Below, in pieces: positions 1-33,034 of a stretch of 36,872 bases of DNA (the first letter of the stretch is position 1; the number at the start of each line of letters is the position of its first letter). Made by a program: the position numbers and the translations under genes. Under the pieces are notes generated by a model. The model was not told the origin of the DNA, made no database searches, and was given only the letters and a program-made list of their open reading frames with translations. Source of the stretch: Oligosphaeraceae bacterium (GTDB lineage: Bacteria > Verrucomicrobiota > Lentisphaeria > Oligosphaerales > Oligosphaeraceae); the NCBI GenBank assembly GCA_012515455.1, contig JAAYYJ010000293.1, positions 1 through 36,872 of the forward strand, read 5' to 3'.

Positions 1-2463
1 AATCGCCTGACTCAAGGCTTCAGGGTCGGAATCATGCATAAAAACATCTTTCGAGAAGCCGATCGGGATCGTACGGGACAGCCATGACTGCACCGCCACC
101 AGGTCCAGTTTCTCATGCCGTGGACGTGATGCGAATGCGCTCTCAACACGTTCAACCACAGCAGTATAGATATAGTCCAGCAACATTCCGCGTGAATCTT
201 CAGTCAGCAGGATGTTGCGCCGCAATTCATAAATGCTGGCTCGCTGCTTGTTCATCACGTCATCATATTCCAGAGTGCGCTTCCGGGTGACGAAATGCTG
301 CTGCTCCACCCGCTTCTGGGCACCCTCAATGGTCCGGTTCAGCAGGCTGTGCGAAAGTTCCTCACCTTCTTCCAGGCCCATGCTTTCCATAATCGAAGTC
401 ATGCGATCAGACCCGAACAGCCGCATCAGGTTGTCTTCGAAAGAGACATAGAAGCGCGATGAACCGGGGTCCCCCTGGCGGGAGCAACGTCCCCGCAACT
501 GCCGGTCAATCCGCCGGGAATCGTGCCGCTCACTGCCGATGACATGGAGTCCGCCAGCCTCCCTGACCCCCGGGCCCAGCTTGATGTCTGTACCGCGTCC
601 AGCCATATTGGTAGCGATGGTCACCGCCGCAAACTGCCCGGCTCGGGCCACGATTTCGGCCTCGCTCTGATGATGCTTGGCATTCAGGACGTTGTGGATG
701 ATGTTGCGGCGCGCAAGCAGCCGGCTAAGCAGCTCAGAGACCTCGACCGAGATCGTCCCCACCAGCACCGGCTGGCCGCGCTGGTGGCAGTCGGCAATCT
801 CCGCGATGATGGCGTTGTACTTCTCGCGCTGAGTCTTGAACACCCGGTCGTTGTGGTCGATGCGCTGGCAGGGGCGATTAGTAGGCACCACCACCACATC
901 CAGCTTGTAGATGGACTTGAACTCGTTGGCCTCGGTCTCGGCGGTGCCGGTCATGCCGGCCAGCTTCTCGTACATACGGAAGTAATTCTGGATGGTAATC
1001 GAGGCCAGGGTCTGGGTTTCACGCTCAATTTTCACCCCTTCCTTAGCTTCCAGGGCCTGATGCAGCCCTTCACTGAAGCGCCGGCCCGGCTGCGGCCGGC
1101 CGGTGAATTCATCCACGATGATGACTTTGTTGTCCTGCACCACGTACTGGACATCCTTTTCAAACAGGCAGTAGGCCCGCAGCAGCTGCGAGATGTTGTG
1201 AATCAGCTCTGACTTGCTGTCGTATTCCACCTGCGCGGCCTTGCGCTGCTCCATCTTGGTGCTTTCATCCAGACTGTGATCGGCATCAATGGCGCTGAAG
1301 ATCGTGGGCAAATCCGGAATCACGAACGCCGCCGGATCGCCCGGGCGCAGGAATTGCCGGCCCATTTCGCTTAAATCAGCCTCGTGCTCACGCTCGCTGA
1401 TCGTGAAATAAAGCGACTCCTTGACCCTCTGCAAGTAACCGCGGTTGTTATCGTTATGCAGTTCGACGTCCTTCTGGTCCAAAGCCTTGCGGATGCGCGG
1501 GTCCTCCATCAGGCGCATCAGTTGCTTGTGTTTCGGCATGCCCAGCTGAACCTTGGCCAGCTTCAGGTATGCCTCATCCAGGCGCTCCGCACTGGCTGCC
1601 GGCTCAGCCAGGATGGTCTTCGCCTCCTGGAGCAAATCCGCCATCAGCTGGAACTGCCGGTGGTAAAGCTGAGAAACTATGGGCTTGACTTTGTCAAACT
1701 GATGCGTGCTGACTTTGGCCGGACCGGCGATAATCAGCGGCGTCCTGGCCTCATCGATCAGAATGCTGTCGATTTCATCGATGATGGCATAAAAATAATC
1801 CCGCTGCACCAGTTCGTCTTTGCTGTTGGCCATACCCATATCGCGCAAGTAGTCAAAGCCGAATTCGCTGTTGGTGCCGTAGGTGATATCGCAGGCATAC
1901 TGTTCCCGGCGCTGCTGGGGAGACATATTATTCTGGATGCAGCCGACGGTGAGTCCCAGCCACTTAAACACATGCCCCATCCACTCGGAGTCACGCCGGG
2001 CCAGGTAGTCGTTGACCGTCACCAGCTGCACATTCCGCCCGGATAGAGCGTTCAAATACAAGGGCATGGTCGCCACCAGGGTCTTGCCCTCACCAGTAGC
2101 CATCTCAGCGATGTTGCCCTGGTGCAAAGCTATGCCGCCCAGCAGCTGTACATCGAAGGGAACCATGTCCCAGGGAATCCGGTGACCAGTGACCAGAACG
2201 CTGTTCTCTTCCGGATTCTTGCTCGCCTGCAAGCGGCGGCAGGCATCCTTTACAACCGCAAATGCCTCACACAGAATATCATCTGTACTCTCGCCAGCTT
2301 TCAGGCGATCCTTGAATTCCTGAGTCTTGCCCTTCAGCTGCTCATCGCTTAAACTGCGATAGGAATCAAACCACTCGTTGATCTTGACTACCAAAGGGTG
2401 CAACTGCTTCAGCACCCGGGTATTGCGATTACCGAATATTTTTCTGGCCAGCCAATGCAACAT
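1..2463 (-). CDS. secA: Preprotein translocase ATPase SecA (N-terminal ~821 codons; C-terminus lies beyond the window start)
   Basis: Absent from the ORF track because the ORF runs off the window edge. Minus-strand translation from the ATG (complement of 2461-2463) reads MLHWLARKIFGNRNTRVLKQL..., a typical SecA N-terminus. The Walker A motif EMATGEGKTLVATMP is encoded around 2060-2107. The plus-strand ORFs 523-1212 and 1384-2046 are antisense shadows. Confidence 0.95.
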   Translation of the reverse strand, partial: MLHWLARKIFGNRNTRVLKQLHPLVVKINEWFDSYRSLSDEQLKGKTQEFKDRLKAGESTDDILCEAFAVVKDACRRLQASKNPEENSVLVTGHRIPWDMVPFDVQLLGGIALHQGNIAEMATGEGKTLVATMPLYLNALSGRNVQLVTVNDYLARRDSEWMGHVFKWLGLTVGCIQNNMSPQQRREQYACDITYGTNSEFGFDYLRDMGMANSKDELVQRDYFYAIIDEIDSILIDEARTPLIIAGPAKVSTHQFDKVKPIVSQLYHRQFQLMADLLQEAKTILAEPAASAERLDEAYLKLAKVQLGMPKHKQLMRLMEDPRIRKALDQKDVELHNDNNRGYLQRVKESLYFTISEREHEADLSEMGRQFLRPGDPAAFVIPDLPTIFSAIDADHSLDESTKMEQRKAAQVEYDSKSELIHNISQLLRAYCLFEKDVQYVVQDNKVIIVDEFTGRPQPGRRFSEGLHQALEAKEGVKIERETQTLASITIQNYFRMYEKLAGMTGTAETEANEFKSIYKLDVVVVPTNRPCQRIDHNDRVFKTQREKYNAIIAEIADCHQRGQPVLVGTISVEVSELLSRLLARRNIIHNVLNAKHHQSEAEIVARAGQFAAVTIATNMAGRGTDIKLGPGVREAGGLHVIGSERHDSRRIDRQLRGRCSRQGDPGSSRFYVSFEDNLMRLFGSDRMTSIMESMGLEEGEELSHSLLNRTIEGAQKRVEQQHFVTRKRTLEYDDVMNKQRASIYELRRNILLTEDSRGMLLDYIYTAVVERVESAFASRPRHEKLDLVAVQSWLSRTIPIGFSKDVFMHDSDPEALSQAI

Positions 2464-2644
2464 CTTGCCTATTCTCACGCTTTATGTTCAAACTCAATAC
2501 TGCTCCCGCAGAGAAAGGGGGACGGTCCCTAAAACAAAGACTACCGGAAAACACCACCACCCGTACTGCAGGCACGGGATTTTTACATTCAACAAATTAA
2601 ACCGGCCCGCACCGTCTCCTGTACCGGTTCAGTCTCCCTGGGGA

Positions 2645-3214
2645 TTATTTGGACCCCGGCTTGTCGATGGGCAGTCCCTTCTGGCAGAGCGGGCAGTTCT
2701 CCGGGTTATAGGTCGGTAGCCGCAGCTGCAGCAGTGCCCGGTAGGGGATGCCGAAATCGACCACCCCCTGACTGCGATCGACCAGGGTCGCCACCCCGAC
2801 CGGGATGGCTCCGCAGGAACGTACCAGGTCGATGGTCTGCTGCACCCTTCCACCCTTGGTGACCACATCCTCGGCCACCAGGACTTTCTCGCCCACAGAC
2901 AAGGAAAAACCGCGCCGCAGCAGCAGATTCGAGGCCTCGTCTTTTTCGGCAAAGATCGCTTTCACGCCCAGAGCCCGTCCGACCTCCTGCCCCACAATAA
3001 TGCCGCCAATGGCCGGCGATATCACGGTCTCAATGCCCTGATTCCGCCATGACTCCGCCAAAGCCTGGCAGAGTCTGGCAGCAATCAGGGTGTGCTGCAG
3101 CACCAGCGCGCCCTGAAAATACTGATCGCTGTGCAAACCGCTGCGCAACAGGAAATGCCCGCGCAACAACGCACCGGTATCGGCGAACTGCTTTAAGATT
3201 TCTGATTCTTGCAT
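2645..3214 (-). CDS. pyrE: Orotate phosphoribosyltransferase
   Basis: 189 aa. The PRPP-binding loop VLVAEDVVTKGG and the overall short-form OPRTase pattern (GHFLLRSGLHSDQYF...) are present. Confidence 0.9.
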   Translation of the reverse strand: MQESEILKQFADTGALLRGHFLLRSGLHSDQYFQGALVLQHTLIAARLCQALAESWRNQGIETVISPAIGGIIVGQEVGRALGVKAIFAEKDEASNLLLRRGFSLSVGEKVLVAEDVVTKGGRVQQTIDLVRSCGAIPVGVATLVDRSQGVVDFGIPYRALLQLRLPTYNPENCPLCQKGLPIDKPGSK

Positions 3215-3341: not shown

Positions 3342-4910
3342 ATGTGCATTGCAAAATCCCCGCTAATTTTCCTGTCGTTGGTACTCATCCTTTGCCCCCT
3401 GCGCCTCCCTGCGCAGTTTGAGGATATCCCGGCGGAAATCCGGCAGGCATGGCTGAGCGCCTATCTTCTGATTGAGAAAGCCGAGCAGCAGAGCAGCGCC
3501 GGAGATGTCTTAGGCGCGCTGGATTTATTGCGCCAGTCCTGGGAAACCCTGTCGCGGCTCCAGAAGGAACACCCGCGCTGGAACCCGGGCATGCTCGCTT
3601 TTCGGATGGAGAACTGCCGCCAGAAGATTCTAGCGCTGGAAGGCCGGGAGCAGGGCGCGATCGCAGCCATGCCCCGGGAGGAGCTGGAGAAATTTCTGCG
3701 CTCCGCCCGGGAGCGCCTGCGCCTGGCTCACCCCCTGAGCCAGGCATCACCGGTCAGCTCTGCCCCGGACTCGCCAGTGCCGCTGCCCGCCCAGATGGAT
3801 TTCTTGACTCGCCTGAATGCGGAAAAACAGCAGTACCAGGCCGAGAACAGCGATCTCAAGACCAGCCTGCAGGAGCTCAAGGCCAAGCTGGAACAGACTG
3901 AATTGCAGGCGCAGGCCTGGCGGCGCACTGCCGCCGGCATGGACAAGCTGCAGCAGGAAATCACCGCCCTCAAAGCCCAAAACCAGGAACTGGAGAGTTT
4001 CCGGCAAAAAGCCGTGCTTGAACTGCACGAACAGAGCAGCAAGGTCCATACCCTGACCCAGGAACTCAGCGGGGCCAAGACCGCACTGACAGAACTGCGC
4101 CGCACGCCTCAGCCCGACCTCTCCGGGGACAAAATTGCCGCAGCGCAACAGGCTGCCGCACAACAGGTCGCCGCCGCACAGCAGGCTGCGGCCCAGCAAG
4201 TCGCCGCCGCCAAGGCCGAATCCAGCCGTCTGGTCCAGGAACAATGGTCGGCCGCGCAGCAGCAGCTCAAAGACCTGCAAGGGCAGCTCCAGGGCTTACG
4301 CAACGAGCTCGAACAGGTGAAGGCGGCAGAACTGCGGCGCGAGAAGGAAAACCAAGCCCTGGCGGATTTTATTCAGAAGGCCATCAGTTTGGAACAAAGC
4401 GGGGAATGGTCCGCAGCAGCCAAACTCTGGCAACGCATTGCCAGCGCCCGCCCTGGTCACGTCCAGACTCTAGCCCGCATTCCGGTACTGCTGCAGCAGG
4501 CCGGCGAACCGACCCAGGCCGGACTGGCCCTCAATAATTATCTCAACCAGGCGGCCGGAGACTTCAATACTCTCCTCAGCTTGGGAGAATCCTGCCTGCA
4601 GGCTAATCAGCCGGCCTACGCCATCACATTCCTGAGCTGGTGCGCGCTCCTCCAGCCCGAAAACGTCCAAGCCAAAGCCGCACTGGGAATGGCCTACGCC
4701 GCCGCCGAAATGCCGCAGGCAGCCGAGAACTATTTGCGGCAGGCCCTGGCCGCGGACGCTGATTACCAGCCGGCCCTGACGGCGCTGGCCATGATCATGG
4801 CCACCGCCAAGCCGCCCCGGACGGCAGAAGCCAAGCAACTCTATCAGCGTGCCCGCACCGCCGGCGCCGGCGCTAACCCGATCCTAGAGGAATTGCTGCA
4901 GGAGCCATAA
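3342..4910 (+). CDS. Secreted TPR / coiled-coil protein
   Basis: 522 aa. It has an N-terminal signal-like segment (IFLSLVLILCPLRLPAQ) and a central Q/A/E/L-rich heptad-like region that includes AAAQQAAAQQVAAAQQAAAQQVAAAK. The C-terminus carries TPR-like repeats (..GMAYAAAEMPQAAENYLRQALAADADYQPAL..). Confidence 0.7.
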   Translation: MCIAKSPLIFLSLVLILCPLRLPAQFEDIPAEIRQAWLSAYLLIEKAEQQSSAGDVLGALDLLRQSWETLSRLQKEHPRWNPGMLAFRMENCRQKILALEGREQGAIAAMPREELEKFLRSARERLRLAHPLSQASPVSSAPDSPVPLPAQMDFLTRLNAEKQQYQAENSDLKTSLQELKAKLEQTELQAQAWRRTAAGMDKLQQEITALKAQNQELESFRQKAVLELHEQSSKVHTLTQELSGAKTALTELRRTPQPDLSGDKIAAAQQAAAQQVAAAQQAAAQQVAAAKAESSRLVQEQWSAAQQQLKDLQGQLQGLRNELEQVKAAELRREKENQALADFIQKAISLEQSGEWSAAAKLWQRIASARPGHVQTLARIPVLLQQAGEPTQAGLALNNYLNQAAGDFNTLLSLGESCLQANQPAYAITFLSWCALLQPENVQAKAALGMAYAAAEMPQAAENYLRQALAADADYQPALTALAMIMATAKPPRTAEAKQLYQRARTAGAGANPILEELLQEP

Positions 4911-5256: not shown

Positions 5257-6828
5257 TTACAACGCCAAGCCGAGTTCCTCGTCCAGGGAATCCAGGGCGG
5301 TTTTCTCCTCTTTGGCCATGTTCTTGGGCATCTTGTAAGTGGGCAGATAACGATAATAGACCTGCAGGCTCAGACAGCAGAGGGCAGTGGTATACCAGCG
5401 GTCATAGGCTCCGGGATTGCCGACCTTGCCGGTCTTGGGGTCAGGCTTCAGACCAGGCGGACATTCCCAATAACCTTCTTCTTTCTGATTGCTGACCACC
5501 ATCGGCGCAAATTTCTCGTTCCACTTGCGCCACGAGGACTGACCAGTATGGAACATCACCTGGGTTTCGTAATACCAGTGATACATCGGATTGGAATGTG
5601 CACCGCTGATCAGCAGTTTGGGATTTGACCAGATGATGGTGGGCAGATGCGTTTCCACGATCAGCTTGGAGACCGTCTTGGCTTCCTTGCAGCCGCCCTC
5701 GCCCAACAGCTGCAGACAAAGGGTGCCCGCGCCCTGCATGCCCCAGCTGCCGCCGCCAGGGGAAGCATAGCCCATGGGCTTGGTGGCGTTAGTCTTGGAA
5801 TAGGCGACTTGTTTGATGAAGCTGATCGCCCTGTCGATGGCTTTGTCTAAATCAGCGACACTGGCGCCCGAGACAAAACCGGCCTTCATGGCCTGGAACT
5901 GCCAGCCCGCGACCGACAAATCCCAGCGCTCGGCCTTGGCATAACTGTAATCGTAACCGCCGCTCTTCTGCTGGCCGTCAACCACCAGAAACAACGCCTT
6001 GTCCATGGCAGGCTTCAGATTCGGCAGTTTGGTCATGCCGTACGCTTCCGAAAGGGCATACGCCACAATGCCGTTGGTGTATGGCTCAATCTTGGGCTTC
6101 CCACCCGTTGTCTCAGGCAGACTCTCGACGTGCCGAATCAGGTACTGCATGGCATTCTGAACCGTCTGCCCATATTCTTCGCTGGTCGGCGTCTCACCAT
6201 GGGCCAGATAAGCCAGCAGACAGAGACCAGCCATGGCCGGACGCGAGCTGGGCCCCCAGGAGCCATCACTGTTCTGCGTCTTCTTCAGCCATTGCAAGGC
6301 CTTCACCACTGCCCGCTCGGTTGCGTCATTGCCGCCGAATTTGCGCCGCTGCTGGGTCCTCCCCTCGTTGGTGCGCCCGCCATACAGAGAAGACAACTTC
6401 AGGGGTGAATCATTGGCCCGGATATCCAGCACATCGGAAAAATTCATGGCGTCGTCAGTGGAGGCCATCTTGTCGCTGAAATCATCTACCGAGGCCACGT
6501 CGGTGACCTGCGCATCGCTGACGATATCCGGCCGTTCCACCGTGGGCACCACTTCCTCCGCGACCTCTTCGAGCTTCTCGAGCTTCTCGAGCTCCTTCTG
6601 GTCCAGCTCCTTGACCTCCAGTTCCTTCATTTCCAGCTCAATGGAGGCCCGGGTGGCTGTCGCTTCGGGCTCATAGAACAGAATTACCGAGCCCATCAGC
6701 AGGATATGCACCACCAGGGAAATCACCGGACCGATCATGCTCTCGAGCATTTTCCGGTGCTGGTACTCTGCCAGGATGGCATCGGCATCAAACGCCTGAA
6801 TCGGGCTTTGTTGGTTGTATTCTTCCAT
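5257..6828 (-). CDS. Membrane-anchored protein with a TonB/TolA-like N-terminal topology and a C-terminal QW-repeat alpha/alpha-toroid (prenyltransferase/squalene-cyclase-like) domain
   Basis: 523 aa. It has a single TM segment (MIGPVISLVVHILLMGSVILFY) followed by an E/K-rich spacer (ELEMKELEVKELDQKELEKLEKLEEVAEEVV). The C-terminal domain carries a QW-type motif (ALQWLKKTQNSDGSWG) and aromatic-rich toroid-like repeats. It is the last gene of the ExbB/ExbD operon. Confidence 0.75.
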   Translation of the reverse strand: MEEYNQQSPIQAFDADAILAEYQHRKMLESMIGPVISLVVHILLMGSVILFYEPEATATRASIELEMKELEVKELDQKELEKLEKLEEVAEEVVPTVERPDIVSDAQVTDVASVDDFSDKMASTDDAMNFSDVLDIRANDSPLKLSSLYGGRTNEGRTQQRRKFGGNDATERAVVKALQWLKKTQNSDGSWGPSSRPAMAGLCLLAYLAHGETPTSEEYGQTVQNAMQYLIRHVESLPETTGGKPKIEPYTNGIVAYALSEAYGMTKLPNLKPAMDKALFLVVDGQQKSGGYDYSYAKAERWDLSVAGWQFQAMKAGFVSGASVADLDKAIDRAISFIKQVAYSKTNATKPMGYASPGGGSWGMQGAGTLCLQLLGEGGCKEAKTVSKLIVETHLPTIIWSNPKLLISGAHSNPMYHWYYETQVMFHTGQSSWRKWNEKFAPMVVSNQKEEGYWECPPGLKPDPKTGKVGNPGAYDRWYTTALCCLSLQVYYRYLPTYKMPKNMAKEEKTALDSLDEELGLAL

Positions 6829-6885: not shown

Positions 6886-7275
6886 TCAGCGCAGAGTCAC
6901 CACATTCAGCTTGGTCAGACCAGCCCCCTGGCAGAGGTCCAGTACATTCACCAAATCCTGGGCTTTGGCACTGATGCTGACCTTGATGATCACCGTCAAA
7001 TCCGGGTCCCGGAAAGAATTCAGGGTGGTCTCCAGAGTGGCCAGGGACACACTGGTCCCGCGCAGGGAATACTGCCCGTCATAGACCTCGACTTCCAGCA
7101 GCTGCGGTTTGCTCTCGCTGGCTTTGGCACTGCCCGGTGTCGGCAGATTGATCGCCAGATGAGCCTCGGAAATCTCTTCCTTCTGGGTGATGATAAAATA
7201 AATCAGCAGCAGGAATACCACGTCGATCATGGACGACATCGGCACCGCTAGCTTGTCATCGTACTTTTTCCGCAT
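6886..7275 (-). CDS. exbD: ExbD/TolR-family biopolymer transport protein (paralog 2)
   Basis: 129 aa. The N-terminal TM carries the conserved Asp (PMSSMIDVVFLLLIYFII). Size and periplasmic domain are typical of the family. Confidence 0.85.
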   Translation of the reverse strand: MRKKYDDKLAVPMSSMIDVVFLLLIYFIITQKEEISEAHLAINLPTPGSAKASESKPQLLEVEVYDGQYSLRGTSVSLATLETTLNSFRDPDLTVIIKVSISAKAQDLVNVLDLCQGAGLTKLNVVTLR

Positions 7276-7297: not shown

Positions 7298-7708
7298 TCA
7301 ACCCTCTACCATGGCGGCAATTCTGACCCGGTACAAACCGACTCTGGCAGCACGCTGCATCACCCGGTCGATGTAATCAAATTTCGTGTTCCCATCACAG
7401 CGGATCAGTAGAGGCAGTGAGTCTCCGGCCTGGATTTTCAAGGCCAGGAGCATCTGCTCCAGCTGGTTCAAAGTAACCGGCTGCAAGGCGATATTGATCT
7501 GCCCGCGCTGATTGACATTGATGGTGACCATGCGGGGGTCATTGGTTTCAACCGCCGGAGACTTCTTGGCCTCAGCGAGGATAATGCTCTCATCGACCAT
7601 ATCCTTGTCAACCGCAGCGGTCACCACGAAGAATATGATCAGGAGAAAAACGATATCAATCATGGAGGTGATTGGCGTCTCCAGATCGTCGCCGCCTCGA
7701 TTGCGCAT
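7298..7708 (-). CDS. exbD: ExbD/TolR-family biopolymer transport protein (paralog 1)
   Basis: 136 aa. The TM carries the conserved Asp (PITSMIDIVFLLIIFFVV), and the gene lies directly downstream of the ExbB-like gene. Confidence 0.85.
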   Translation of the reverse strand: MRNRGGDDLETPITSMIDIVFLLIIFFVVTAAVDKDMVDESIILAEAKKSPAVETNDPRMVTINVNQRGQINIALQPVTLNQLEQMLLALKIQAGDSLPLLIRCDGNTKFDYIDRVMQRAARVGLYRVRIAAMVEG

Positions 7709-7768: not shown

Positions 7769-8518
7769 TTATTCTTCCACTTCGGCTTTGCGCAAGGGCT
7801 TGATCAATTCCAGCACCGTGGCTTCCGATTCCAGAATCAAGCGTGTGGCGTTGTTGCGGAAATAAGTATAGAACAGCAGGGCGGGGACGGAAATCAGCAG
7901 CCCCACGCAAGTAGTCCAGAGCGCGGTGGAGATAGAGTTGGCCAACACCCGGGCTTTGGCTGCGCCGGTGGCGCTGGCCAGACCGGCAAAGGCCAGTACC
8001 ATGCCGACCACGGTGCCCATCAGGCCCAGCATAGGCGCAATCTGCCCGCAGATGTTCAGCAGGCCCACCCGCTGCATCAGCTTCTCGGTCTCCAAATCAG
8101 TACGGGAGGAGACCGCCTGCTGCACCACATCGTAGCCGTCATAGATATTGTCGAAGGCTTCCTTGAGGATGTTCGACAACGAGCCGGGATTGGCCTGGCA
8201 GGTGGCAATGGCAGTCTCGAGGTCGCCATTGGCCAAAGCCTGGCGCACTCCATCCACCAGCAGTGCCGGAATCAGCTTGTCTCGGCGCACGACCATGAAG
8301 CCATCGATGGCGAACCACAGCATCGCGAAGGAAGTGGCAAAGATACCGATCCAGATAATCAGATTGATGATGCTGCCGCCATAGAGGATATTCCACATGC
8401 CGCTGCCGGCAGGTGCGGCCTCCGCCTCAGCCGCAGCAGCGGCAGCTTCCTGAGCCATCACTCCGAGCTGCAGGACAAAAAAACTCAGCACGGCGATTTT
8501 TGCAGACAACGCTTTCAT
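7769..8518 (-). CDS. exbB: MotA/TolQ/ExbB-family proton channel
   Basis: The family signature is present (..APMLGLMGTVVGMVLAF..ISTALWTTCVGLLISVPALLFYTYF..). I prefer the internal ATG at 8518 (MKALSAKIAVLSFF...) because AAGGAGAG lies about 5 nt upstream; the ORF-track start is 8560. The N-terminus has a signal-like segment plus an Ala/Glu-rich stretch. Confidence 0.85.
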   Translation of the reverse strand: MKALSAKIAVLSFFVLQLGVMAQEAAAAAAEAEAAPAGSGMWNILYGGSIINLIIWIGIFATSFAMLWFAIDGFMVVRRDKLIPALLVDGVRQALANGDLETAIATCQANPGSLSNILKEAFDNIYDGYDVVQQAVSSRTDLETEKLMQRVGLLNICGQIAPMLGLMGTVVGMVLAFAGLASATGAAKARVLANSISTALWTTCVGLLISVPALLFYTYFRNNATRLILESEATVLELIKPLRKAEVEE

Positions 8519-8571
8519 CGATTCTCTCCTTAAGGTCATAAATGGGCAGAAAATAAACAATCAGTGATTTG

Positions 8572-9330
8572 TTATTGGTAGGCGGCGATTTTATCCACGC
8601 GCGGGTCGTTCAGCTCCCGCATCAGTTTAGTAGCCCTGGATTTGGCCATACTTCTGACCTCATCGACCTTCTTGTTGTTCTCAAACAGCATCAGCACCTT
8701 CAGATATTCCAGCACAGCCTGTTTCTTGTCACCTTTGGCCTCGGCCATTTCCCCGAACAGACAGAAGGCCTGCGCGGCTTTAGCCTCATCGGCGCTGACC
8801 ATCTGGCGTTTCAGCACGCTGTCCGCCTTGTCGTAATCCTTATCGGCGATGTAGATCTTGACCATTGAGGCTTCGAGCAGTTCACGCTGCTCTCCCGCCA
8901 GACGGTTGGCCGCAACCAGCACCCGCTTGGCCTCGGCGACCTTGTTGCCGGTCAGCAGCGCATCAGCGTGCATAGAGGCAATCACATTGCTCCAGCCCAG
9001 GTATTTGTACTTCGCAAACACGCCATCCGCCTGACTGATGACCTGGTCGTATTTCTTCTCGGCGAACAGCTGTTCCAGGGCCGCGACCTCCTTCGGCTTG
9101 CTGACAAAGCCCATCTTGTACTGCCCGGCTCGGAACGGCATCTTGAGCTTGCCGTCCACATCCAGAACCAGATTGCCCTGGTCATCGGCCTTCAGGGCCC
9201 GGCCGCTGATTTTGCGGTTGTCACTGGTGATGACGTAGCAGTCCTGCTTGCCTTGTGCCTGGGCCAAGCCTGGCGCACCGATTACCGCCAGCAACAACAG
9301 ACTGAGCATATACCGTTTACAATTCGCCAT
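8572..9330 (-). CDS. Secreted TPR-like protein
   Basis: 252 aa. It has a signal peptide (MLSLLLLAVIGAPGLAQAQ), a small N-terminal domain and helical TPR-like repeats. GGAGG lies about 9 nt upstream of the ATG. Confidence 0.7.
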   Translation of the reverse strand: MANCKRYMLSLLLLAVIGAPGLAQAQGKQDCYVITSDNRKISGRALKADDQGNLVLDVDGKLKMPFRAGQYKMGFVSKPKEVAALEQLFAEKKYDQVISQADGVFAKYKYLGWSNVIASMHADALLTGNKVAEAKRVLVAANRLAGEQRELLEASMVKIYIADKDYDKADSVLKRQMVSADEAKAAQAFCLFGEMAEAKGDKKQAVLEYLKVLMLFENNKKVDEVRSMAKSRATKLMRELNDPRVDKIAAYQ

Positions 9331-9408: not shown

Positions 9409-12400
9409 TCAGTTCGCCAGGCGGCTGATTTCCGCCAGGTATTTCCCGCCACTGAACAGCGTTTTGTAACGTTTGACCATCTCGTTGACCTTCTCCTGCT
9501 CGCCCGCCAATGAGTACAGCTTCGCGCTGCCCACCAGTGCCCGTTCGATTAACTCCCGGTTCTCCGGAATCTTCGGGTCAGCCAGCAGGACAATCTGATA
9601 GTTGGACAGAGCAGCATTGCGCTTGCTCGGGTCATTGCTCTTCAGAATCGCATCAGCATAGAGACAGGAAGCCTGGTTGCGCATCAGGGGCGAGGTGGCG
9701 AACATCATCACGTCATAGAGGTCCTGCTCCAGGCCCGCCCAGTCCGGCGGATCGATGTTCGCTTTGGCTTCAGCCAGAATGAATTTGATCTCGAAAAAGA
9801 AATTACTGCGTTCATTCGCGGCCAGGATGCCCTCCAGAATTTTAATGGCCTCGGCATAGCGTTTGTTGCTGGCCAGGCTTTGCCCCAGGGCGAAGCTGGC
9901 GCGCTCCTTCTGCCCGCGGGTGATGGCAGGAGCATCGGGATGCTTCGGGTCATCAGCACGCTTCAGAATTTCCCGGTTGGCTACGCTGGCGGGGATGGGC
10001 AGACCGGCTTTAAGGCAGATATCCGAGACATAATACAAGTTCGCCAGGGCAATCTCCTCCGGCTTGCCCAGCAGTTTCTCAAACGCTTTGGCAGCCTCTT
10101 CCAGATTGCCGTTCTCGGCTTGGGCCCGCCCCAGCATAAACAGGGCTTTCTGGGTCGCGGGGTCTTTCGGGAATTCCGCCGCCAAACGACGCAGGACATC
10201 AGAGGCCTTAACCGGATCCTCGATATCAAACAAATAAATCGAACCTAAGCGAGACATGTTCTCCGGCGCCTTGGAAGAGGGATGCTGCTGCAGAAATTTC
10301 CCAAACCCTTCCACCGCCTTGCTCTTCAGGCTGTCGAACTCTTTTTTGGTCGGTTCATTGCCGGCCGTGACTTCCTCCAGAATCTTGCTGGCGGCGGCTA
10401 TGCCGGCACGGCTGTTTTCTGCCCGCTGGGCGAGATATTCGCCGCGCACTGCAATCTTCTCGCTCAGCAGTTTCTTGCGCGCGTCCTCAGCTTGGAAAGC
10501 AGCTTCAATTGCGCGCTTTAGTTCGTCCTGGGACGTCTTACGCTCCGCAACCGCTTTTTCCAAAATCCCGCCATAGACGCGGTTCAGGGACAGAGTTTTG
10601 CCGGCGGCGAGCTGCTCCGCCTCTACAATCTGCGCCTCGATTTTGGCCAGCGCGAGATCATTTTTCACCCGCAAGGCCTCGGCCTCGGCGGCAGTAACGT
10701 CCTCGGCCAGCTCAACCACCGCCCGCTCGAGGTTGCGGATTTCCGCCTGGGTCTGCTCGCTGCTGGCCTCCTTCTGGCGCACAAACGCGGCCTGGAAGAG
10801 CTCATTCATCTTCGTCGCCGCTTCGGCCAGCTGGTCGAGTTCCTTCTGCAGGTTTTCCTTCTCCTTGCCCTTGGCATCATCGACCCGGCTCTCCATCTGT
10901 GACTTCAACTCCTGCGCGGCCTGGCGTTCTGAGTCCGCGAGAGTCAAAGCCTTGTCGGCATCTTCCTGAGCCTTGCGCAAAGCCACGGCCTGGGCTGCGG
11001 ACTCCTGACCGCGCTTCTTAAGCTCGGCGATGCGTTCGCTGATTTCTTTGGCTTCGTCATTCAGCCGGGCCAGGCGTTTCTCAATCTTCGCTTTCTCCTG
11101 CACCGCATCCGCAGCCCGCTTCTCCTGGGTCAGGTTGTTGCCGACTAGCTCATTTTTTTTCTGCACCTCCAAGTCGGCAATGCGCTTGATGATGCTGCTC
11201 TGCAAGGTTTGCCGGTGGACCTGCTTCTCCGCCTCGCTCATCTTAGCCATATCTTCCGACACCGCCTCAATCTGCTGCGTAGCCAGGGCAGTAAAATCCA
11301 GCAGCATCTCGGCATAGGAATTCTGCAAGGCCGCGAGATTCTCGTCCAGGCTGTTTAGACTCAGCTTTGCCTGTTCCTGCTCGGCCTGTCCCTGGGCGAT
11401 GGTCTCTTCGAAGGCCTTGATGCGATCCTGCAGGACCTTCCTGCGATTTTTGGCGACCGTCATTTCCGGGCGGTATCTCTCCGCTGCCAAATCGTAAGCC
11501 CAGGGCAGGAAGGACAGGCAGTCCTCACGCAACCGGCCCGCGACCTCGCTTTTCAGATCAAAACCGCTGTCTTTGTCGCTGAGGACTTTCTGCAGCTGCT
11601 CGAAATGCCCCACCGCATCCAGAGGATGATCGCTGTAAATCAGCAAATAGGCACCCTGGAATTTCGCCTGCAGGCGGTCGTTGGCGTAACGCGGATTCGA
11701 TTCGCTCTCGAAATAGTTCAGGAAGTACTCTATGGCCTTCTCCCGTTCCCCGACCGAATCATAGCACCAGGCCAGCTTATACTGTGAACGCACACCCGTC
11801 GGGAAAGTCCCGAAGACTTCGACCATGCGCTGATATTTGGGTATCGCCGACCGGAATGCCGCCTGGGCCTCTTCGTGGGCCTTGGCTTTGTCGCTGGCGT
11901 TAGCAGCCTGGTTGGCCCGCTCAGCCAGACGACTCGCCTGCGCGAACGCATTCTCCGCCACCGTGAAGGCAATTTCCGAAGCCTTGGGGTGGGACGGGGC
12001 GGCATCGACAAATTTATCGAAAGCGGACAGAGCCCGGCCCTCGTATTCGGTTTTCAGGGAGGGCTTCTTCTCGTTCTGGGCCTTGGTCCAAAGCATCACT
12101 CCGAAACGCAGGGCGGCATCAGCGGTGCCTTCTGCGCGGGGGGCGACCGCGCTCAAATAATCCAGGAGCGCATCAGCGCCATTGAGGTCATCCATCTCCG
12201 CCAGGCACATCACCAGGCGCAACCCCACCTCCGGGACACGTTTGCCGGTACGTCCCAGCCGCAGTGCCTCCAGGCAAGGCTGGAATGCACTCTGATAGTT
12301 CTTCTGCTGCAGGAAAGCATCCGCCTTTTCCAAGCTGGCCGAAACAATCGCGGCTGAGCCGCTTTGTTTGAGCTCCAGCTTCTCGCCGAATTTTGCTTCC

Positions 12401-13500
12401 GAGAACTTGCTGCAGGCATCGTGTTCGGTGATGGCCTGATTCTGGAAGGCGCTGTCGGGATACTCGTCGAGCAGTTTTTCCAGATATTTGGCTGCGCCCC
12501 GGATTTGCACCTTGGCCTTGTCTGTCTCGCCCTTGGCATAAGTTGTCACGGCGTGACTGGCGAAAGCAATAGCCTTGTAGTACATTGCTTCGACCAGTGG
12601 CGACTTGGGGGAATTCTCCAGCCCCTGCATCTTGGCCAGCTCCTCCAGACGCGGGGTGATCATATCAATGGCTTTGACGGCATTGGCAAAATCATCGATT
12701 TTGCCAATATCCTTGGCTTTTTCCTTTTCTTTAGGCAGCAGCGGCAGAAGCTTGCCCCGCCCGCGGATAATGTATGACCGCGCCAGCTGCACCGCACCAG
12801 CAGCAGCCACCCCGTCACGGATAAACTGCAGGTTCTCCAAACCTTTGATGGCTGCAGCCAGGGCCTTGTCATCAATCTTGCCGCTGGACTTCAGCTTATT
12901 CTCCTCGTTGTCAATGGCGGTCTGAAGCTTCAGAAATTCCATCTGCCGTTCATCGACCGCGCCCTTGATGTTGGCCAGCAACTCCAGAACCTTGGCCGCC
13001 TCGGCCGGCTTGTTCATCGATTTCAGGACGTAGTTGTAGATCATCACCGCCTGTTTGAATTTGTTGGCGTCGGATTTCTTGTTCGAAGCCGGCTGCTGAT
13101 TTTTGGCAAAATATTCTTTATAGACCTTGGCTGCCTCAGGCCATTGCTTGCGGGCGGCAAAAACCTGCGCCTGCAACAGCAGCACTTCGCCCGCCAAGGG
13201 GGAGTTCTTGGGAATAGCCTTCAAGGCGGTATCGGCGTCTTTACTGCGTCCGACGGTATAGAAAATACGGGCCTTCTCCAGATTGATCAGGTCTTTCTGC
13301 TCGGGATATTTTTTCTGCATCTGCCCGAGCTGCATCTCAGCGTAGTCATTGAATTCAATGCGGCTGAGCTCCTGCAGGAAAGTCAAATCCAGTTCGAATT
13401 CATCGATGGCCAAGAGCAGGCTGCTGCAGAACAACATCAGCACCAAGAAAAAAGACCACCGCCTGGAGGACTTTCCCGCTGTCAATATCTTATTGCCCAT
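9409..13500 (-). CDS. Giant (1363 aa) signal-anchored TPR, long coiled coil, TPR protein
   Basis: It has an N-terminal hydrophobic segment (WSFFLVLMLFCSSLLLA) and TPR-like repeats on both sides. The central E/K/Q/A-rich heptad-like segment is about 360 residues (roughly nt 10370-11460). It is the first gene of the ExbB/ExbD operon. Confidence 0.8.
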   Translation of the reverse strand: MGNKILTAGKSSRRWSFFLVLMLFCSSLLLAIDEFELDLTFLQELSRIEFNDYAEMQLGQMQKKYPEQKDLINLEKARIFYTVGRSKDADTALKAIPKNSPLAGEVLLLQAQVFAARKQWPEAAKVYKEYFAKNQQPASNKKSDANKFKQAVMIYNYVLKSMNKPAEAAKVLELLANIKGAVDERQMEFLKLQTAIDNEENKLKSSGKIDDKALAAAIKGLENLQFIRDGVAAAGAVQLARSYIIRGRGKLLPLLPKEKEKAKDIGKIDDFANAVKAIDMITPRLEELAKMQGLENSPKSPLVEAMYYKAIAFASHAVTTYAKGETDKAKVQIRGAAKYLEKLLDEYPDSAFQNQAITEHDACSKFSEAKFGEKLELKQSGSAAIVSASLEKADAFLQQKNYQSAFQPCLEALRLGRTGKRVPEVGLRLVMCLAEMDDLNGADALLDYLSAVAPRAEGTADAALRFGVMLWTKAQNEKKPSLKTEYEGRALSAFDKFVDAAPSHPKASEIAFTVAENAFAQASRLAERANQAANASDKAKAHEEAQAAFRSAIPKYQRMVEVFGTFPTGVRSQYKLAWCYDSVGEREKAIEYFLNYFESESNPRYANDRLQAKFQGAYLLIYSDHPLDAVGHFEQLQKVLSDKDSGFDLKSEVAGRLREDCLSFLPWAYDLAAERYRPEMTVAKNRRKVLQDRIKAFEETIAQGQAEQEQAKLSLNSLDENLAALQNSYAEMLLDFTALATQQIEAVSEDMAKMSEAEKQVHRQTLQSSIIKRIADLEVQKKNELVGNNLTQEKRAADAVQEKAKIEKRLARLNDEAKEISERIAELKKRGQESAAQAVALRKAQEDADKALTLADSERQAAQELKSQMESRVDDAKGKEKENLQKELDQLAEAATKMNELFQAAFVRQKEASSEQTQAEIRNLERAVVELAEDVTAAEAEALRVKNDLALAKIEAQIVEAEQLAAGKTLSLNRVYGGILEKAVAERKTSQDELKRAIEAAFQAEDARKKLLSEKIAVRGEYLAQRAENSRAGIAAASKILEEVTAGNEPTKKEFDSLKSKAVEGFGKFLQQHPSSKAPENMSRLGSIYLFDIEDPVKASDVLRRLAAEFPKDPATQKALFMLGRAQAENGNLEEAAKAFEKLLGKPEEIALANLYYVSDICLKAGLPIPASVANREILKRADDPKHPDAPAITRGQKERASFALGQSLASNKRYAEAIKILEGILAANERSNFFFEIKFILAEAKANIDPPDWAGLEQDLYDVMMFATSPLMRNQASCLYADAILKSNDPSKRNAALSNYQIVLLADPKIPENRELIERALVGSAKLYSLAGEQEKVNEMVKRYKTLFSGGKYLAEISRLAN

Positions 13501-13595
13501 CTATGCGTCCTTTGCATTATGCCAATACTGAGCCGGCAGAAAAAATGCTACGCATCGACAAACAACTCTGTGCGAGTACTGAATAACGATAGAGA

Positions 13596-13674
<79 letters not shown>

Positions 13675-14260
13675 ACTTCTTTCTCAAATTGCCAGACAGA
13701 CAGGGCCAACTCTATGCACCAACTCTGTCAGCACATATAATGTAGCTCGTCTTTCGCTAACAACAACCCCGCACAGCGAAATTTATCGCCAACAAAGCAT
13801 TTTTCGCCTTTTCTGCCACCATCTCCAGCGTGAACACCGTTGCGGCAGGAGACAAAAAACACCAACGGACATAGTATAATCATCATGGCGGAAAATGTCA
13901 AGAAAGAAAAACAAATTATCTCGCTAGGGAATCAATTATTGCCTGATTATAGCCAATACAACGCCCGCGGGCAGGACATGCCCGGGATTCCTTGTCCTTT
14001 ATTGGTCAAAGGATGGAAATTCAAAGAGTTATGGGTAAAATGCGTTTCGGCCCTTGTCGGACCCCCAAAAACAGCTACATTTTGTCCGCATCAACTCGGT
14101 GGGCTCTCAGCCCACCCTACCGAGGGGGGCCTCCAGCCCTAATATTGACGCGCGCGCGAGATGCAAATCAGGGCCGGGACCACGCGGAAACAACCCATTT
14201 TCTGCCAGGAGCGAGTCCCCGACATGGCGAGTCCCCAGGGACAGGGGGGTGCCCCGGCCA

Positions 14261-14814
14261 AGTGGTACAGATGGGGCTGCAGCGGGTCAACAGGACTGGC
14301 GGTGGCAGGGCCGCCGGTGGCACAGATGGGGCCGCAGCGGCCAACAGGACTGGCGGCGGCAGGGTCGCCGGTGGCACAGATGGGGCCGCAGCGGGATAAC
14401 AGGACTGGCGGCGCCAGGGCCGCCGGTGGTACAGATGGGGCCGCGGCGGGATAACAGGACTGGCGGCGCCAGGGCCGCCGGTGGTACAGATGGGGCCGCA
14501 ACGGGATAACAGGACTGGCGGCGCCAGGGCCGCCGGTGGCACAAATGGCGCCGCAACGGGATAACAGGACTGGCGGCGCCAGGGCCGCCGGTGGCACAAA
14601 TGGCGCCGCAATGGGTCAACAGGACTGGCGGCGGCAGGGCCGCCGGTGGCACAGATGGAGCCGCAACGGGTTAACAGGACTGGTGGCGCCAGGGACGCCG
14701 GTGGCACAGATGGGGCCGCAACGGGATAACAGGACTGGCGGCGCCAGGGCCGCCGGTGGCACAAATGGCGCCGCAATGGGTCAACAGGACTGGCGGCGGC
14801 AGAGCCGCCGTGGG
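14261..14814. repeat. Tandem array of ten head-to-tail 55-bp units (one unit is 54 bp), no spacers
   Basis: Unit starts are at 14261, 14316, 14370, 14425, 14480, 14535, 14590, 14645, 14700 and 14755. The consensus is GGTGGCACAGATGGGGCCGCARCGGGATAACAGGACTGGCGGCGCCAGGGCCGCC. ORFs are open in all frames on both strands across the array. Confidence 0.9.
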
Positions 14815-14888
14815 CGGTTGATTGGCGCCCCAGCGGCAGCAATTGCAGGCGCGGCTCGGTCGCCGCCGCTGTCCCCGGAGGATATTTT

Positions 14889-16085
14889 TCACGCCCGGGT
14901 CTGCGCCAGGATCACCGCTGCGTTGTTGCCGCCGATGCCAGCGGAATTCACCAGTGCGGTGGAGAATTCCTTGCAGCGGGGCTGGCCGGCCAGACTGTCC
15001 AGGAAGGCGCAATCGGGGTCGATTTCCTGCAGATTCAGGGTGGGCGGAATAATACCATGGCGCATCGCCAGCAAGGTGATGACGGCCTCCGCCAGACCGG
15101 CTGCGCCTAGCAGATGCCCGAGCTGGGATTTGTGGGCCGCGACGGTCAGCCCGGACAGGCGCTCTCCGAAGATGTTCCGCAGTGCGGCCGCTTCGGTCTT
15201 GTCATTCGCGACGGTGCTGGTGGCGTGGGCGCAGACATGCTCAATGTCAGCCGCGTCCAGGCCAGACTGCCGCAGAGCCTCGTGCATGACTTCCCGCGAG
15301 CCCTCGGCTTCGGGCCTGGGGGCAGTAAGATGGAAGGCGTTGTTGTTGGTGGCCGCACCGAGCAAGTACTGCGCCGGGGCAGCCGACGCAGCCCGGTCGT
15401 CCTCACGCTCCAGCAGCACCGCCGCCGCTCCTTCACTGAAGATGGTGCCCGAGCGCCGCCGGTCGAAGGGACGCATGGTATCACTGGTTATGGTGCGCAA
15501 GTTGTGCAGGCCGCACCAGCAGAACTCACTCAGGATGTCGAAGGCGATGACCAGCACCCGCGCCGCCCGGCCAGTGCGGAGGATATCCCAGCCGGCGGCC
15601 AAAGCCGCGGTCCCTGAGGCGCAGGAGAAGGACAGCTGCTGACAGCCGCCGGCACAGCCCAGCGAGCGGGCCAATCCCGGCAGGAAATCCTCCCAGTGCT
15701 GCTGTGAAGCCAGTGAGACCGCCCCGAGGTCCTGCTTCTCCCGCCAGAGCCACTCCTGGGTCTCCCAGGCTCCAAAATTGCTGGCCAGCACCAATGCCAG
15801 GGCGCTGTCCGGCCGGGCCGGAGCCCCCTCCGGCAATCCCAGGGCCTGCCGGCCGGCCTGCTTAGCCAGTGCGCCGGCTAGCTCATCCTCGGGATAAGCA
15901 TTGCGCAGAAACTCATCCTCGACTTCGGACAGCATCCCCGCCTTTTGCTGCTGATAAGGGGCCGCGGGAAATCTCCATATCGGGCGGAAGGCGTCCTGCC
16001 CGGCACACATGCGCTGGTATACCTCCTCGGGATTGCGCCCCAAGCTGCAGCACAAACCTTGACCCACAAAACGTATTTTTGCCAT
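14889..16085 (-). CDS. Beta-ketoacyl-[ACP] synthase (FabF/FabB-type condensing enzyme, Cys-His-His)
   Basis: 398 aa. The active-site Cys lies in FSCASGTAAL, with His motifs CAHATST and HKSQLGHLLGAAG. The C-terminus NSAGIGGNNAAVIL is typical of the family. AGGAG lies about 9 nt upstream. Confidence 0.85.
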   Translation of the reverse strand: MAKIRFVGQGLCCSLGRNPEEVYQRMCAGQDAFRPIWRFPAAPYQQQKAGMLSEVEDEFLRNAYPEDELAGALAKQAGRQALGLPEGAPARPDSALALVLASNFGAWETQEWLWREKQDLGAVSLASQQHWEDFLPGLARSLGCAGGCQQLSFSCASGTAALAAGWDILRTGRAARVLVIAFDILSEFCWCGLHNLRTITSDTMRPFDRRRSGTIFSEGAAAVLLEREDDRAASAAPAQYLLGAATNNNAFHLTAPRPEAEGSREVMHEALRQSGLDAADIEHVCAHATSTVANDKTEAAALRNIFGERLSGLTVAAHKSQLGHLLGAAGLAEAVITLLAMRHGIIPPTLNLQEIDPDCAFLDSLAGQPRCKEFSTALVNSAGIGGNNAAVILAQTRA

Positions 16086-32206: not shown

Positions 32207-33034
32207 ATGAGTGACTTGGTCAGGAAATGCATTCTGTTGCTCTGTCTGTTTAGCGCCGGGTGGCTGCCGGCCCAAACCGGCCTGGGGGAGTCGCTGCTGC
32301 TGGAAGGCCGCATGGCGATGGCCCGGGCCGAACAGTACCTTCTGGCGGAACAAGGCGCTGGCGGTTCTTGGCAGGACAGCCTGGCAGACACTGCGCAAAC
32401 CGTGATGGCGCTCGCGAATGCCGGATACGCTGACAGCCCAAAGCTGCAGGCGGCAGGAACTTTCTTACGCTCAGCCGGCACAGCAGCCAACGCGGAGGTG
32501 CTCATCCTCGCTTGCCGCAGCATGCTGCGCTTGGGGCAGCAGCTGACCGTAGAGCACAGGGAAGTACTGCTCCGGCTGGCGGACGGGGAGCTATCCCCCC
32601 AGGCCAGGCAATGGCTGCTGGAAATACACTACCTCCTCGACCGACAAGACCTGCCCCTGCTGCCGCCGGCAGTGGTAGCCAACCAGCTGCTGCTGCTGCA
32701 AAATCCGCACTCCCCAGCCGGTTTACGGCTGTTCGCCGCGCTTTGTGCCCCGGACCACGACTTGCGGTCGCCGGAGCTGGCGGCCTGGCGCCAGGAGGCG
32801 CTGGCGGCCCCGGTTGCCACGGACCCCGACGCCAGATTATGGCTGTGCCGCGCTCTGCGGGCCTTTGCGGTGCTGTCGGGTGGGAACGAAGACGGCTCGT
32901 GGCGGCACACTCTCACCGTTCAGCTCCTGGAGTCTCAGAAGCACGACGGCTCTTGGGGAGAAGGCAGTCGGCAAGTCCTGCACACTGCCTTGTCCTTGCA
33001 GGCTCTGCAACATTGTTTGGCAATTATAGAATAA
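32207..33034 (+). CDS. Secreted QW-repeat alpha/alpha-toroid (prenyltransferase/terpene-cyclase-like) protein
   Basis: 275 aa. It has a signal peptide (ILLLCLFSAGWLPAQ) and QW-like motifs (..QGAGGSWQDS.., ..ESQKHDGSWGEG..). Confidence 0.65.
   Translation: MSDLVRKCILLLCLFSAGWLPAQTGLGESLLLEGRMAMARAEQYLLAEQGAGGSWQDSLADTAQTVMALANAGYADSPKLQAAGTFLRSAGTAANAEVLILACRSMLRLGQQLTVEHREVLLRLADGELSPQARQWLLEIHYLLDRQDLPLLPPAVVANQLLLLQNPHSPAGLRLFAALCAPDHDLRSPELAAWRQEALAAPVATDPDARLWLCRALRAFAVLSGGNEDGSWRHTLTVQLLESQKHDGSWGEGSRQVLHTALSLQALQHCLAIIE

Follow-up and report, generated by a model that had tools for sequence, protein, structure and literature searches.

We analysed a DNA stretch of 36,872 nucleotides from an Oligosphaeraceae bacterium (contig JAAYYJ010000293.1; referred to in full length as the window), in which an open reading frame (ORF) at 5257-6828 encodes a 523-residue protein with a TonB/TolA-like membrane anchor, a long linker, and a head predicted to fold as a single (alpha/alpha)6 toroid (tentatively referred to as the toroid protein). 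In the interpretation we prefer, to which we assign a probability of roughly 0.6, this protein is the force-transducing subunit of a trans-envelope system specific to the Planctomycetes-Verrucomicrobia-Chlamydiae (PVC) group and powered by a proton-driven ExbB5-ExbD1/ExbD2 motor. We favor the view that this is a third kind of energized envelope system, distinct from Ton and Tol, and a sister of systems whose transducers carry a vWA (von Willebrand factor A) head. The interpretation is built on the TonB/TolA-type anchor motif, the gene position after exbD with its conserved synteny, the Asp kept by the motor, a linker predicted to be disordered, and the modeled toroid head.

Gene cluster

The ORF is present as described in an earlier note on this DNA, which had placed it where tonB or tolA would be expected; as exbB, exbD, and exbD lie upstream of it on the same strand, the gene indeed occupies that position. 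It is the last of six same-strand ORFs with gaps of 11-78 nucleotides, encoding in order a 1363-residue tetratricopeptide repeat (TPR) protein, a 252-residue TPR protein, ExbB, two ExbD subunits, and the toroid protein (Table 1). The two ExbD subunits are 33% identical to each other, and the proton-binding transmembrane (TM) Asp is present in both paralogs at every locus aligned (D18 in 42/42 aligned sequences of subunit 1 and 42/43 of subunit 2, the remaining one being a gap). The best NCBIfam match of the window ExbB is TolQ, with a score of 72.5 bits that is far below the cut-off of 221 bits, and the two ExbDs score 33-39 bits on the TolR model vs. a cut-off of 127.

Both TPR genes are co-conserved with the cluster. 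The 252-residue protein begins with a signal peptide, and in its AlphaFold2 (AF2) model, which has a predicted local distance difference test score (pLDDT) of 88, residues 31-76 form a beta domain of six strands and residues 80-249 form TPR-like repeats; Foldseek returned only generic TPR proteins and no specific relative, and the structure was set aside as a functional clue. The 1363-residue protein has an N-terminal signal or anchor, a charged coiled-coil-like middle (about 750-1050), and a YbgF/CpoB-like TPR stretch at 1061-1144 (TIGR02795, 4.5e-11, below the cut-off of that model). An anti-phage defense function, as known for MotAB-like motors such as that of Zorya, was ruled out, as the PADLOC defense models gave zero matches for all six cluster proteins.

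Table 1. Coordinates of the cluster genes and of the predicted parts of the toroid protein in the window.
Feature	Position	Strand	Basis
Promoter-like site TTGACA-17-TATACT, upstream of cluster	13873..13901	(-)	Consensus scan, 11/12 matches; weak evidence
1363-residue TPR protein, first gene of cluster	9409..13500	(-)	TPR_16 3e-12, co-occurrence
252-residue secreted TPR-like protein	8572..9330	(-)	AF2, Foldseek, co-occurrence
ExbB/TolQ-like proton-channel subunit, 263 residues, signal-peptide-like N-terminal extension	7769..8560	(-)	PF01618 E 1.7e-25
ExbD/TolR-like subunit 1, 136 residues, TM Asp18	7298..7708	(-)	PF02472 E 4.7e-22
ExbD/TolR-like subunit 2, 129 residues, TM Asp18	6886..7275	(-)	PF02472 E 9.8e-22
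Toroid-headed protein, 523 residues, ATG start	5257..6828	(-)	
Predicted cytoplasmic N-terminus, residues 1-32	6733..6828	(-)	Alignments, AF2
TM helix, residues 33-52, GPVISLVVHILLMGSVILFY, Ser37-x3-His41	6673..6732	(-)	Alignment of family N-termini
Candidate motor box/D-box, residues 62-75 (S-I-E-L-E-M-K-E-L-E-V-K-E-L)	6604..6645	(-)	Alignment columns
Periplasm-spanning linker ("domain II"), residues 53-150	6379..6672	(-)	Composition, AF2
Single (alpha/alpha)6 toroid head, residues 151-497, with V490-YYRYLP496 closing segment	5338..6378	(-)	AF2, Foldseek, profile
C-terminal tail, residues 498-523, variable linker and terminal motif	5260..5337	(-)	95 family tails

Membrane anchor, candidate motor box, and linker

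The conservation described below is based on alignments of 28 homologs, of 91 homologs, and of 98 family ORFs recovered from genomes. The N-terminus carries a conserved helix, AILAEYxRR(Q/K)MxE (with L19, Y22, and R25), which in the AF2 model is part of a helix spanning residues 15-51. By analogy to TonB and from the charge bias, we infer a putative N-in/C-out topology. The TM helix follows the pattern GPxISLxxHxxL across the family; of 93 N-termini, 90 have P34, 80 have S37, and 78 have H41. The Ser-x3-His motif that a TonB-type anchor should carry is thus found, and an SHLS-type motif of this kind is the contact of TonB and TolA with ExbB/TolQ (PMC10907165; Williams-Jones et al., 2025, Mol Biol Evol, PMC12204202). 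In one subclade (loci L051, L053, L065, L073, L074, L080, and L081), His41 is replaced by Pro, Cys, Ser, or Asn and the TM helix is different (for example RLSAPAAAVLVPFLAL); the contact of these members with the motor may be of another kind.

About 10 residues past the TM helix is a strand-like segment of alternating hydrophobic and acidic residues, which we regard as a candidate motor box. Its conserved consensus at residues 63-69 is (I/V)-E-(V/L)-x-(M/V/I)-x-E, and the individual columns hold I/V63 in 79, E64 in 82, V/L/I/F65 in 92, M/V/I67 in 81, and E/D69 in 83 of the 98 sequences. In TonB, the D-box or motor box (ISVTMVT, Phi-z-Phi-z-Phi-Phi-z) lies in a disordered region past the TM helix and is a strand captured by the ExbD dimer. 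The pLDDT below 50 at residues 62-75 is to be expected for such an element, because the strand needs a partner.

The E/K-rich spacer that the earlier note had compared to the TonB/TolA stalk is present at residues 64-94 (ELEMKELEVKELDQKELEKLEKLEEVAEEVV). The linker as a whole contains 27 acidic and 10 basic residues and is not Pro-rich, with 4 Pro. It is predicted to be mostly disordered (pLDDT below 50 at residues 62-75 and 92-145), and includes a conserved segment ahead of the head, ...MDFSxVLDI...PLKLSxLYGGR. When residues 1-110 were searched by phmmer against 1.84 billion representative sequences, only 49 matches were obtained, each of them a member of the toroid family or a fragment of one, and no other type of head was seen among them.

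Toroid head and C-terminal tail

The head (about 150-497) was modeled by AF2 from the 91-sequence alignment as an all-alpha toroid of 12-13 helices with pLDDT above 90 (predicted template modeling score for the whole protein, 0.70). A toroid-like C-terminal domain had been proposed from the sequence; the fold holds, while its size is about 350 residues and not about 380. Foldseek searches against the PDB returned (alpha/alpha)6 toroids exclusively, with template modeling scores (TM-scores) of 0.60-0.65 normalized by target and 10-16% identity, the top matches being 8pak (a single-domain squalene-hopene cyclase), AprG, GH76 mannanases, and MstE (a meroterpenoid cyclase); cellobiose 2-epimerase was also among the matches. 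The likeness to GH76-type six-hairpin glycosidases is at the level of fold only (TM-score about 0.6, 10-13% identity). Three QW-like repeats are present (residues 178-191, 279-292, and 441-454), and the QW-type motif singled out earlier, QWLKKTQNSDGSWG, spans residues 179-192. The toroid can be placed in the QW/terpenoid-cyclase superfamily at the sequence level, since the family profile matched only terpene cyclases among PDB sequences (squalene-hopene cyclase [SHC] 5.5e-12, 8pak 2e-5). The target sequence alone gave sub-threshold squalene-cyclase matches that are confined to the QW repeat (SHC chains 1.7e-7; PF13243 20.7 bits vs. a gathering threshold of 26.1; TIGR01787 24.8 vs. 322.7). No dedicated Pfam or NCBIfam model for the toroid-headed family was matched, and neither Pfam nor NCBIfam gave a TonB_C (PF03544) or TolA_C match in the toroid protein.

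Fourteen residues of the head (W180, Q185, G189, W191, H210, E212, E261, Q286, D303, Q312, K315, Q423, Q448, and W454) are near-invariant, being kept in 89-98 of the 98 sequences. The median identity of the paralogs is about 44%, and near-invariance across such paralogs suggests that they have a single site for binding or catalysis in common. A catalytic site would fit a different view of the protein, in which it is a membrane-anchored periplasmic enzyme (terpene-cyclase-like or prenyl-binding, or similar to six-hairpin glycosidases) that is co-transcribed with ExbBD and has no mechanical coupling to the motor. The invariant polar residues E261, D303, H210, E212, and K315 lie in an aromatic-rich toroid, the structural neighbors are enzymes, and NCBI lists some homologs as "terpene cyclase/mutase family protein" and others as [quoted passage not shown]. 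We consider this very unlikely, however. As the earlier note had stated, no cyclase catalytic motif is recognizable: neither DxDD nor DCTAE occurs in the target and DCTAE is in 0/98 members (D.DD occurs in 9/98, counted at any position in the sequence). There is only one toroid, and the Pfam score is below gathering. Further points against an enzyme of this kind are the SxxxH motor-docking motif with its adjacent motor-box-like strand, motor synteny that is fixed across classes, and an N-terminal module and head that always occur together.

An invariant V-Y-Y-R-x-L-P segment closes the toroid, and the tail beyond it is 22-41 residues long (median 26). It ends in the motif [DE][DE]-Phi-x-Phi-x-[IV]-x, which is DEELGLAL in the window protein. 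This terminal motif was found in 71 of 95 family tails, vs. a mean of 9 and a maximum of 17 in 200 shuffles.

Family distribution and gene context

A word-indexed search found more than 1118 homologs, which are labeled as Lentisphaerae, Victivallales, Oligosphaeraceae, or Kiritimatiellaeota. When one genome per species was scanned, the family was encoded at no fewer than 583 loci, which are practically confined to Lentisphaeria, Kiritimatiellia, and metagenome-assembled genomes (MAGs) labeled as Verrucomicrobiota/PVC. Given these numbers and the near-invariant residues at about 44% identity, the gene is not a chance ORF. Antisense "shadow" ORFs that arose from crude gene calling were discarded.

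The order exbB-exbD-exbD-toroid was found in 36 of 81 fetched loci, and all six cluster genes occur in order in 29. Independent gene calls and Pfam labels confirmed the cluster on two contigs, one of Lentisphaeria (3.98 Mb) and one of Kiritimatiellaeota, and in a third MAG. The anticipated co-conservation with exbB-exbD-exbD thus extends across both Lentisphaeria and Kiritimatiellia, but only to about half of the copies: among the 98 family ORFs, 42 are directly downstream of exbD, 11 follow another toroid gene in tandem, 34 are orphans, and 11 are too close to a contig edge to be assessed. Up to five or more copies occur in single MAGs, and linked and orphan copies belong to different sequence clades with clade-specific tails. 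Such linked, tandem, and orphan copies, several per genome, make the same pattern as multiple TonB paralogs on one motor. At locus L065, 1579-4981 and 6970-10372 are an apparently exact duplicate of exbB-exbD-exbD-toroid with mutL in between and identical E-values, which may represent a true tandem duplication or may have arisen in assembly.

The paralog pattern also bears on the possibility that the toroid protein is a functional analog of TonB, with toroid paralogs sharing one ExbBD motor for uptake (e.g., of sulfated glycans) through transporters that are unrecognized or are not TonB-dependent transporters (TBDT). The multiple orphan and tandem paralogs per genome would suit this role, as would polysaccharide-degrading hosts (K. 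glycovorans was reported to be without TonB-dependent polysaccharide receptors), Foldseek neighbors that include (alpha/alpha)6 proteins known to bind sugars (GH76, AprG, and cellobiose 2-epimerase), and cavity residues that are aromatic plus acidic. Against it, no transporter gene is consistently adjacent, Pontiella (Kiritimatiellales) has ordinary TBDT and TonB_C genes, and the linked copy is located among housekeeping genes and not in glycan-utilization loci. On balance, we regard a TonB-like uptake role as possible but unlikely.

The housekeeping neighborhood is that of Kiritimatiellia, in which the cluster is followed by mutL, serS, tilS, and ftsH. We considered the encoded MutL, SerRS, TilS, and FtsH as partners and rejected them, since this is housekeeping synteny. 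Immediately past mutL, at a distance of some 2 kb from the toroid gene, these loci contain a more canonical pair of TolQ (121.8 bits, TIGR02796) and TolR (94.5 bits), at 10343-11394 (+) in L040 and also in L024 and L065. No TolA-like gene was seen adjoining the pair, as judged from the next-gene context in L040. L040-type pairs may be the case listed as "tolQ-tolR-??? No TolA found" for a Lentisphaerae MAG by Williams-Jones et al. (2025).

The toroid protein could be suspected of being the missing TolA of these lineages. It would then be part of a remodeled Tol system, together with its TolQ/TolR-like motor and the TPR proteins that resemble CpoB, and this system would mobilize TolB-Pal or in another way stabilize and constrict the outer membrane at division. 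TolQ and TolR are the best NCBIfam matches of the motor, the giant TPR protein matches YbgF/CpoB, one linked copy is in the housekeeping neighborhood just described, and K. glycovorans has tolB-pal but no annotatable TolA (PMC12204202). Nevertheless, we judge this distinctly unlikely, as a separate, more canonical TolQ and TolR pair is encoded at those Kiritimatiellia loci, the scores of the toroid-linked motor are far under the TolQ/TolR cut-offs, and the toroid gene, with up to five or more paralogs per genome, is unlike tolA. Furthermore, the tolB and pal families are absent from the gene lists of three loci (L001, L003, and L082) within 10 kb on either side, and a TolA of V. vadensis was used in PMC12204202, so at least some Lentisphaerae have TolA.

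Several orphan paralogs are found beside arrays of two to five prepilin-type (DUF1559-like) genes (L039, L041, and L070) or beside DUF1592-like genes (L041, L070, and L026), which in L041 and L070 form pairs with DUF1552-like genes. These four loci belong to one Lentisphaeraceae MAG, S10.bin.24, and their family labels were read from the sequence without a Pfam scan. We did not retain these neighbors as a clue, because PVC genomes contain too many genes of these families and most of the cases stem from a single MAG, such that the adjacency may be due to chance.

The DUF1559-like neighbors would otherwise suit a motor for surface machinery, i.e., for gliding, adhesion, secretion, or a pilus-like structure. 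In the Agl-Glt system of Myxococcus, TolQR-like motors, TonB-like GltG/J, and large TPR proteins cooperate. The giant and small TPR proteins and the motor of one TolQ-like and two TolR-like subunits recall Agl-Glt, and gliding was suggested for the sister vWA system (PMC12204202). Yet the conserved cluster contains no gene for an outer-membrane barrel, an adhesin, or a secretin, DUF1559-like genes are as widespread in PVC as noted above, and the cluster is found in non-motile gut MAGs of the Victivallales type. We therefore hold an Agl-Glt-like role to be highly improbable.

Proposed mechanism

In the force-transducer interpretation, the TM helix would dock on the rim of the ExbB pentamer through His41, and the ExbD heterodimer would grip the motor box at residues ~62-75. 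Proton flow would then generate tension through the linker and pull on the periplasmic toroid. The earlier note had suggested that the stator moves a ligand-binding head, and this may describe the action of the motor. The toroid would be a binding head for one conserved ligand or for a short "box" of a partner, comparable to TonB paralogs that grip Ton boxes; we take it to be a binding head because cyclase catalytic motifs are absent and because the aromatic and polar residues are almost invariant in the paralogs. As an all-alpha head is incapable of the strand addition performed by TonB_C and TolA_C, we regard the invariant cavity and the conserved, acidic, strand-like tail as candidates for the contact. 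Strand addition, or docking to the two TPR proteins encoded in the cluster, would most likely involve the tail; as its partners, the TPR proteins are plausible but speculative. Orphan paralogs, several per genome, would probably share one motor. Because canonical Ton and Tol parts coexist with the toroid system in at least some members of these lineages, a separate envelope process is most likely.

Several observations weigh against the force-transducer interpretation. About half of the assessable copies are not adjacent to a motor, and about 15 family members are without His41, several of which are still directly downstream of exbD. The likeness of residues 62-75 to the TonB D-box is at the level of pattern only, and position 6 of that pattern is not hydrophobic in the toroid protein. 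The charge bias on which the topology is partly based is weak. The invariant E261, D303, H210, E212, and K315 could equally form a catalytic site. Finally, the family is known here from sequences and a predicted structure, and our analysis identified no partner, ligand, or outer-membrane component.

Carrying the force-transducer interpretation further, we can envisage the toroid as a gripping or extracting device driven by the proton motive force, which captures and translocates a glycan or a polyprenyl- or hopanoid-like lipid, or opens an unrecognized gate in the outer membrane, and would thus provide Lentisphaeria and Kiritimatiellia with a TBDT-independent, energized route for transport across the envelope or for its remodeling, with the DD-Phi-x-Phi-x-I tail as a latch for strand addition or TPR docking. 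This more specific proposal, which would make the toroid a third class of head, is tentative, and the odds are clearly against its holding in this form.

Other features of the window

Convergent to the toroid gene is a gene at 3342-4910 (+) for a 522-residue protein with a signal peptide, a coiled coil, a TPR region (MamA-like, 3.2e-10), and a AAQQAAAQQVAAA repeat. It was considered as a cluster member and rejected, as it is not conserved beside the cluster in 81 related loci. Further away, a 275-residue secreted protein encoded at 32207-33034 (+) has QW-like repeats (GGSWQD and HDGSWGEG) and a weak SQHop_cyclase_N match (E 8.9e-4). The adjoining gene (30851-32176 (+)) encodes a 441-residue double thioredoxin-like protein with a fourfold SKEAAPA repeat. 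Within 12001-16000, the G+C content shifts sharply from 0.53 in the region of the 5' part of the 1363-residue TPR gene to 0.67 in a FabF-like/DinB region.

Significance

To our knowledge, TonB and TolA were long held to be the sole means by which 5:2 proton motors span the periplasm. If the toroid protein is a force transducer, the toroid family adds a new class of head to the TonB, TolA, and vWA transducers, one not yet described for proton-driven envelope systems. Our literature search found no paper that links ExbD/TolR-type motors to a terpene-cyclase-like head, and none on the toroid-headed family. At least 583 species genomes encode the family, with several paralogs per genome, and its hosts are anaerobes that degrade glycans and are abundant in gut, sediment, and ocean. 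For annotation, the names "terpene cyclase/mutase" and "prenyltransferase repeat" are at present given to more than 1000 proteins, and for these a cyclase identity is very unlikely. His41, the strand at residues 63-69, the invariant cavity residues, and the C-terminal motif provide experimental handles on an all-helical head that would be pulled by a motor. The same handles bear on what fills the TolA gap reported for Kiritimatiellota.

Comparison with known systems

The toroid protein shares with TonB the gene position after exbD, a TM helix with Ser-x3-His, a strand-like segment at the position of the D-box, a linker of about 100 residues, and the presence of several paralogs per genome, some of them orphan. 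It differs from TonB in the absence of TonB_C, with an all-alpha head instead, and in its acidic linker that is not rich in Pro. With TolA it has in common the SHLS-type anchor, the TolQ/TolR-like motor, and a co-encoded CpoB-like TPR protein, but TolA_C is lacking, tolB and pal are not nearby, and a separate, more canonical TolQR pair is present elsewhere in the same genomes. Similar to class II terpene cyclases (SHC 1gsz/2sqc, 8pak, and MstE 6sbb), it has QW-type repeats and an (alpha/alpha)6 toroid. Unlike these enzymes, it has a single toroid of about 350 residues instead of a beta-gamma pair, is without DxDD/DCTAE, is predicted to be periplasmic and membrane-tethered, and shows sub-gathering Pfam scores and 10-16% identity in structural alignments.

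[quoted passage not shown] Toroid, terpene, or prenyl heads are not mentioned in the text and supplement of that paper. In T. aerotolerans (CP047593.1, locus L084), the gene order is TPR (938 residues), a 262-residue protein, ExbB (247), ExbD (143), ExbD (146), vWA (476), and vWA (474). The layout of a large TPR protein, a protein of about 260 residues, one tolQ-like and two heterologous tolR-like genes, and a transducer is shared with the window, as is the transducer plan of an SxxxH TM helix, a motor box (a candidate one in the toroid protein), a domain II of about 100 residues, and a globular head that is not TonB-like. The best matches of the window ExbD1 and ExbD2 also keep the gene order.

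Upstream of this published vWA locus, we observed a third transducer-like gene (809-3154 (+) in L084), which is preceded by a TPR gene (904 residues) and a 110-residue ORF. It encodes a 781-residue protein with two vWA-like modules and an N-terminal helix, SAEAAAVSIVVHILLILLAGS, and its N-terminus is weakly similar to that of the toroid protein (31% over 89 residues).

Despite these similarities, the two systems differ in the head, which is a Rossmann-like vWA domain in one and a QW (alpha/alpha)6 toroid in the other, and in their TPR proteins of about 250 residues, which have no detectable sequence similarity. The toroid-linked motors are a separate and coherent group: the window ExbB scores 159-437 bits against all toroid-linked ExbBs of both classes, vs. 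108 bits (36% identity) against the vWA-linked ExbB of Tichowtungia and 60-69 bits against the additional, more canonical TolQ that the Kiritimatiellia toroid loci contain. No vWA ORF was found in any fetched toroid locus. From the ExbB scores, the ExbD order, the absence of vWA genes from toroid loci, and an N-terminal module that is exclusive to toroid proteins, we conclude that the toroid and vWA systems are paralogous sister modules with different heads, and not recent domain swaps. The TonB/TolA topology with another head that the earlier note had recognized is retained, but "replaced" is not the best word for the head: the toroid protein has a chassis that is a sister of the one in vWA-headed transducers, and the head on it is of a different type. 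The description of the vWA-headed family in 2025 and now of a toroid-headed one would make the head an exchangeable module on a conserved chassis of TPR proteins and motor.

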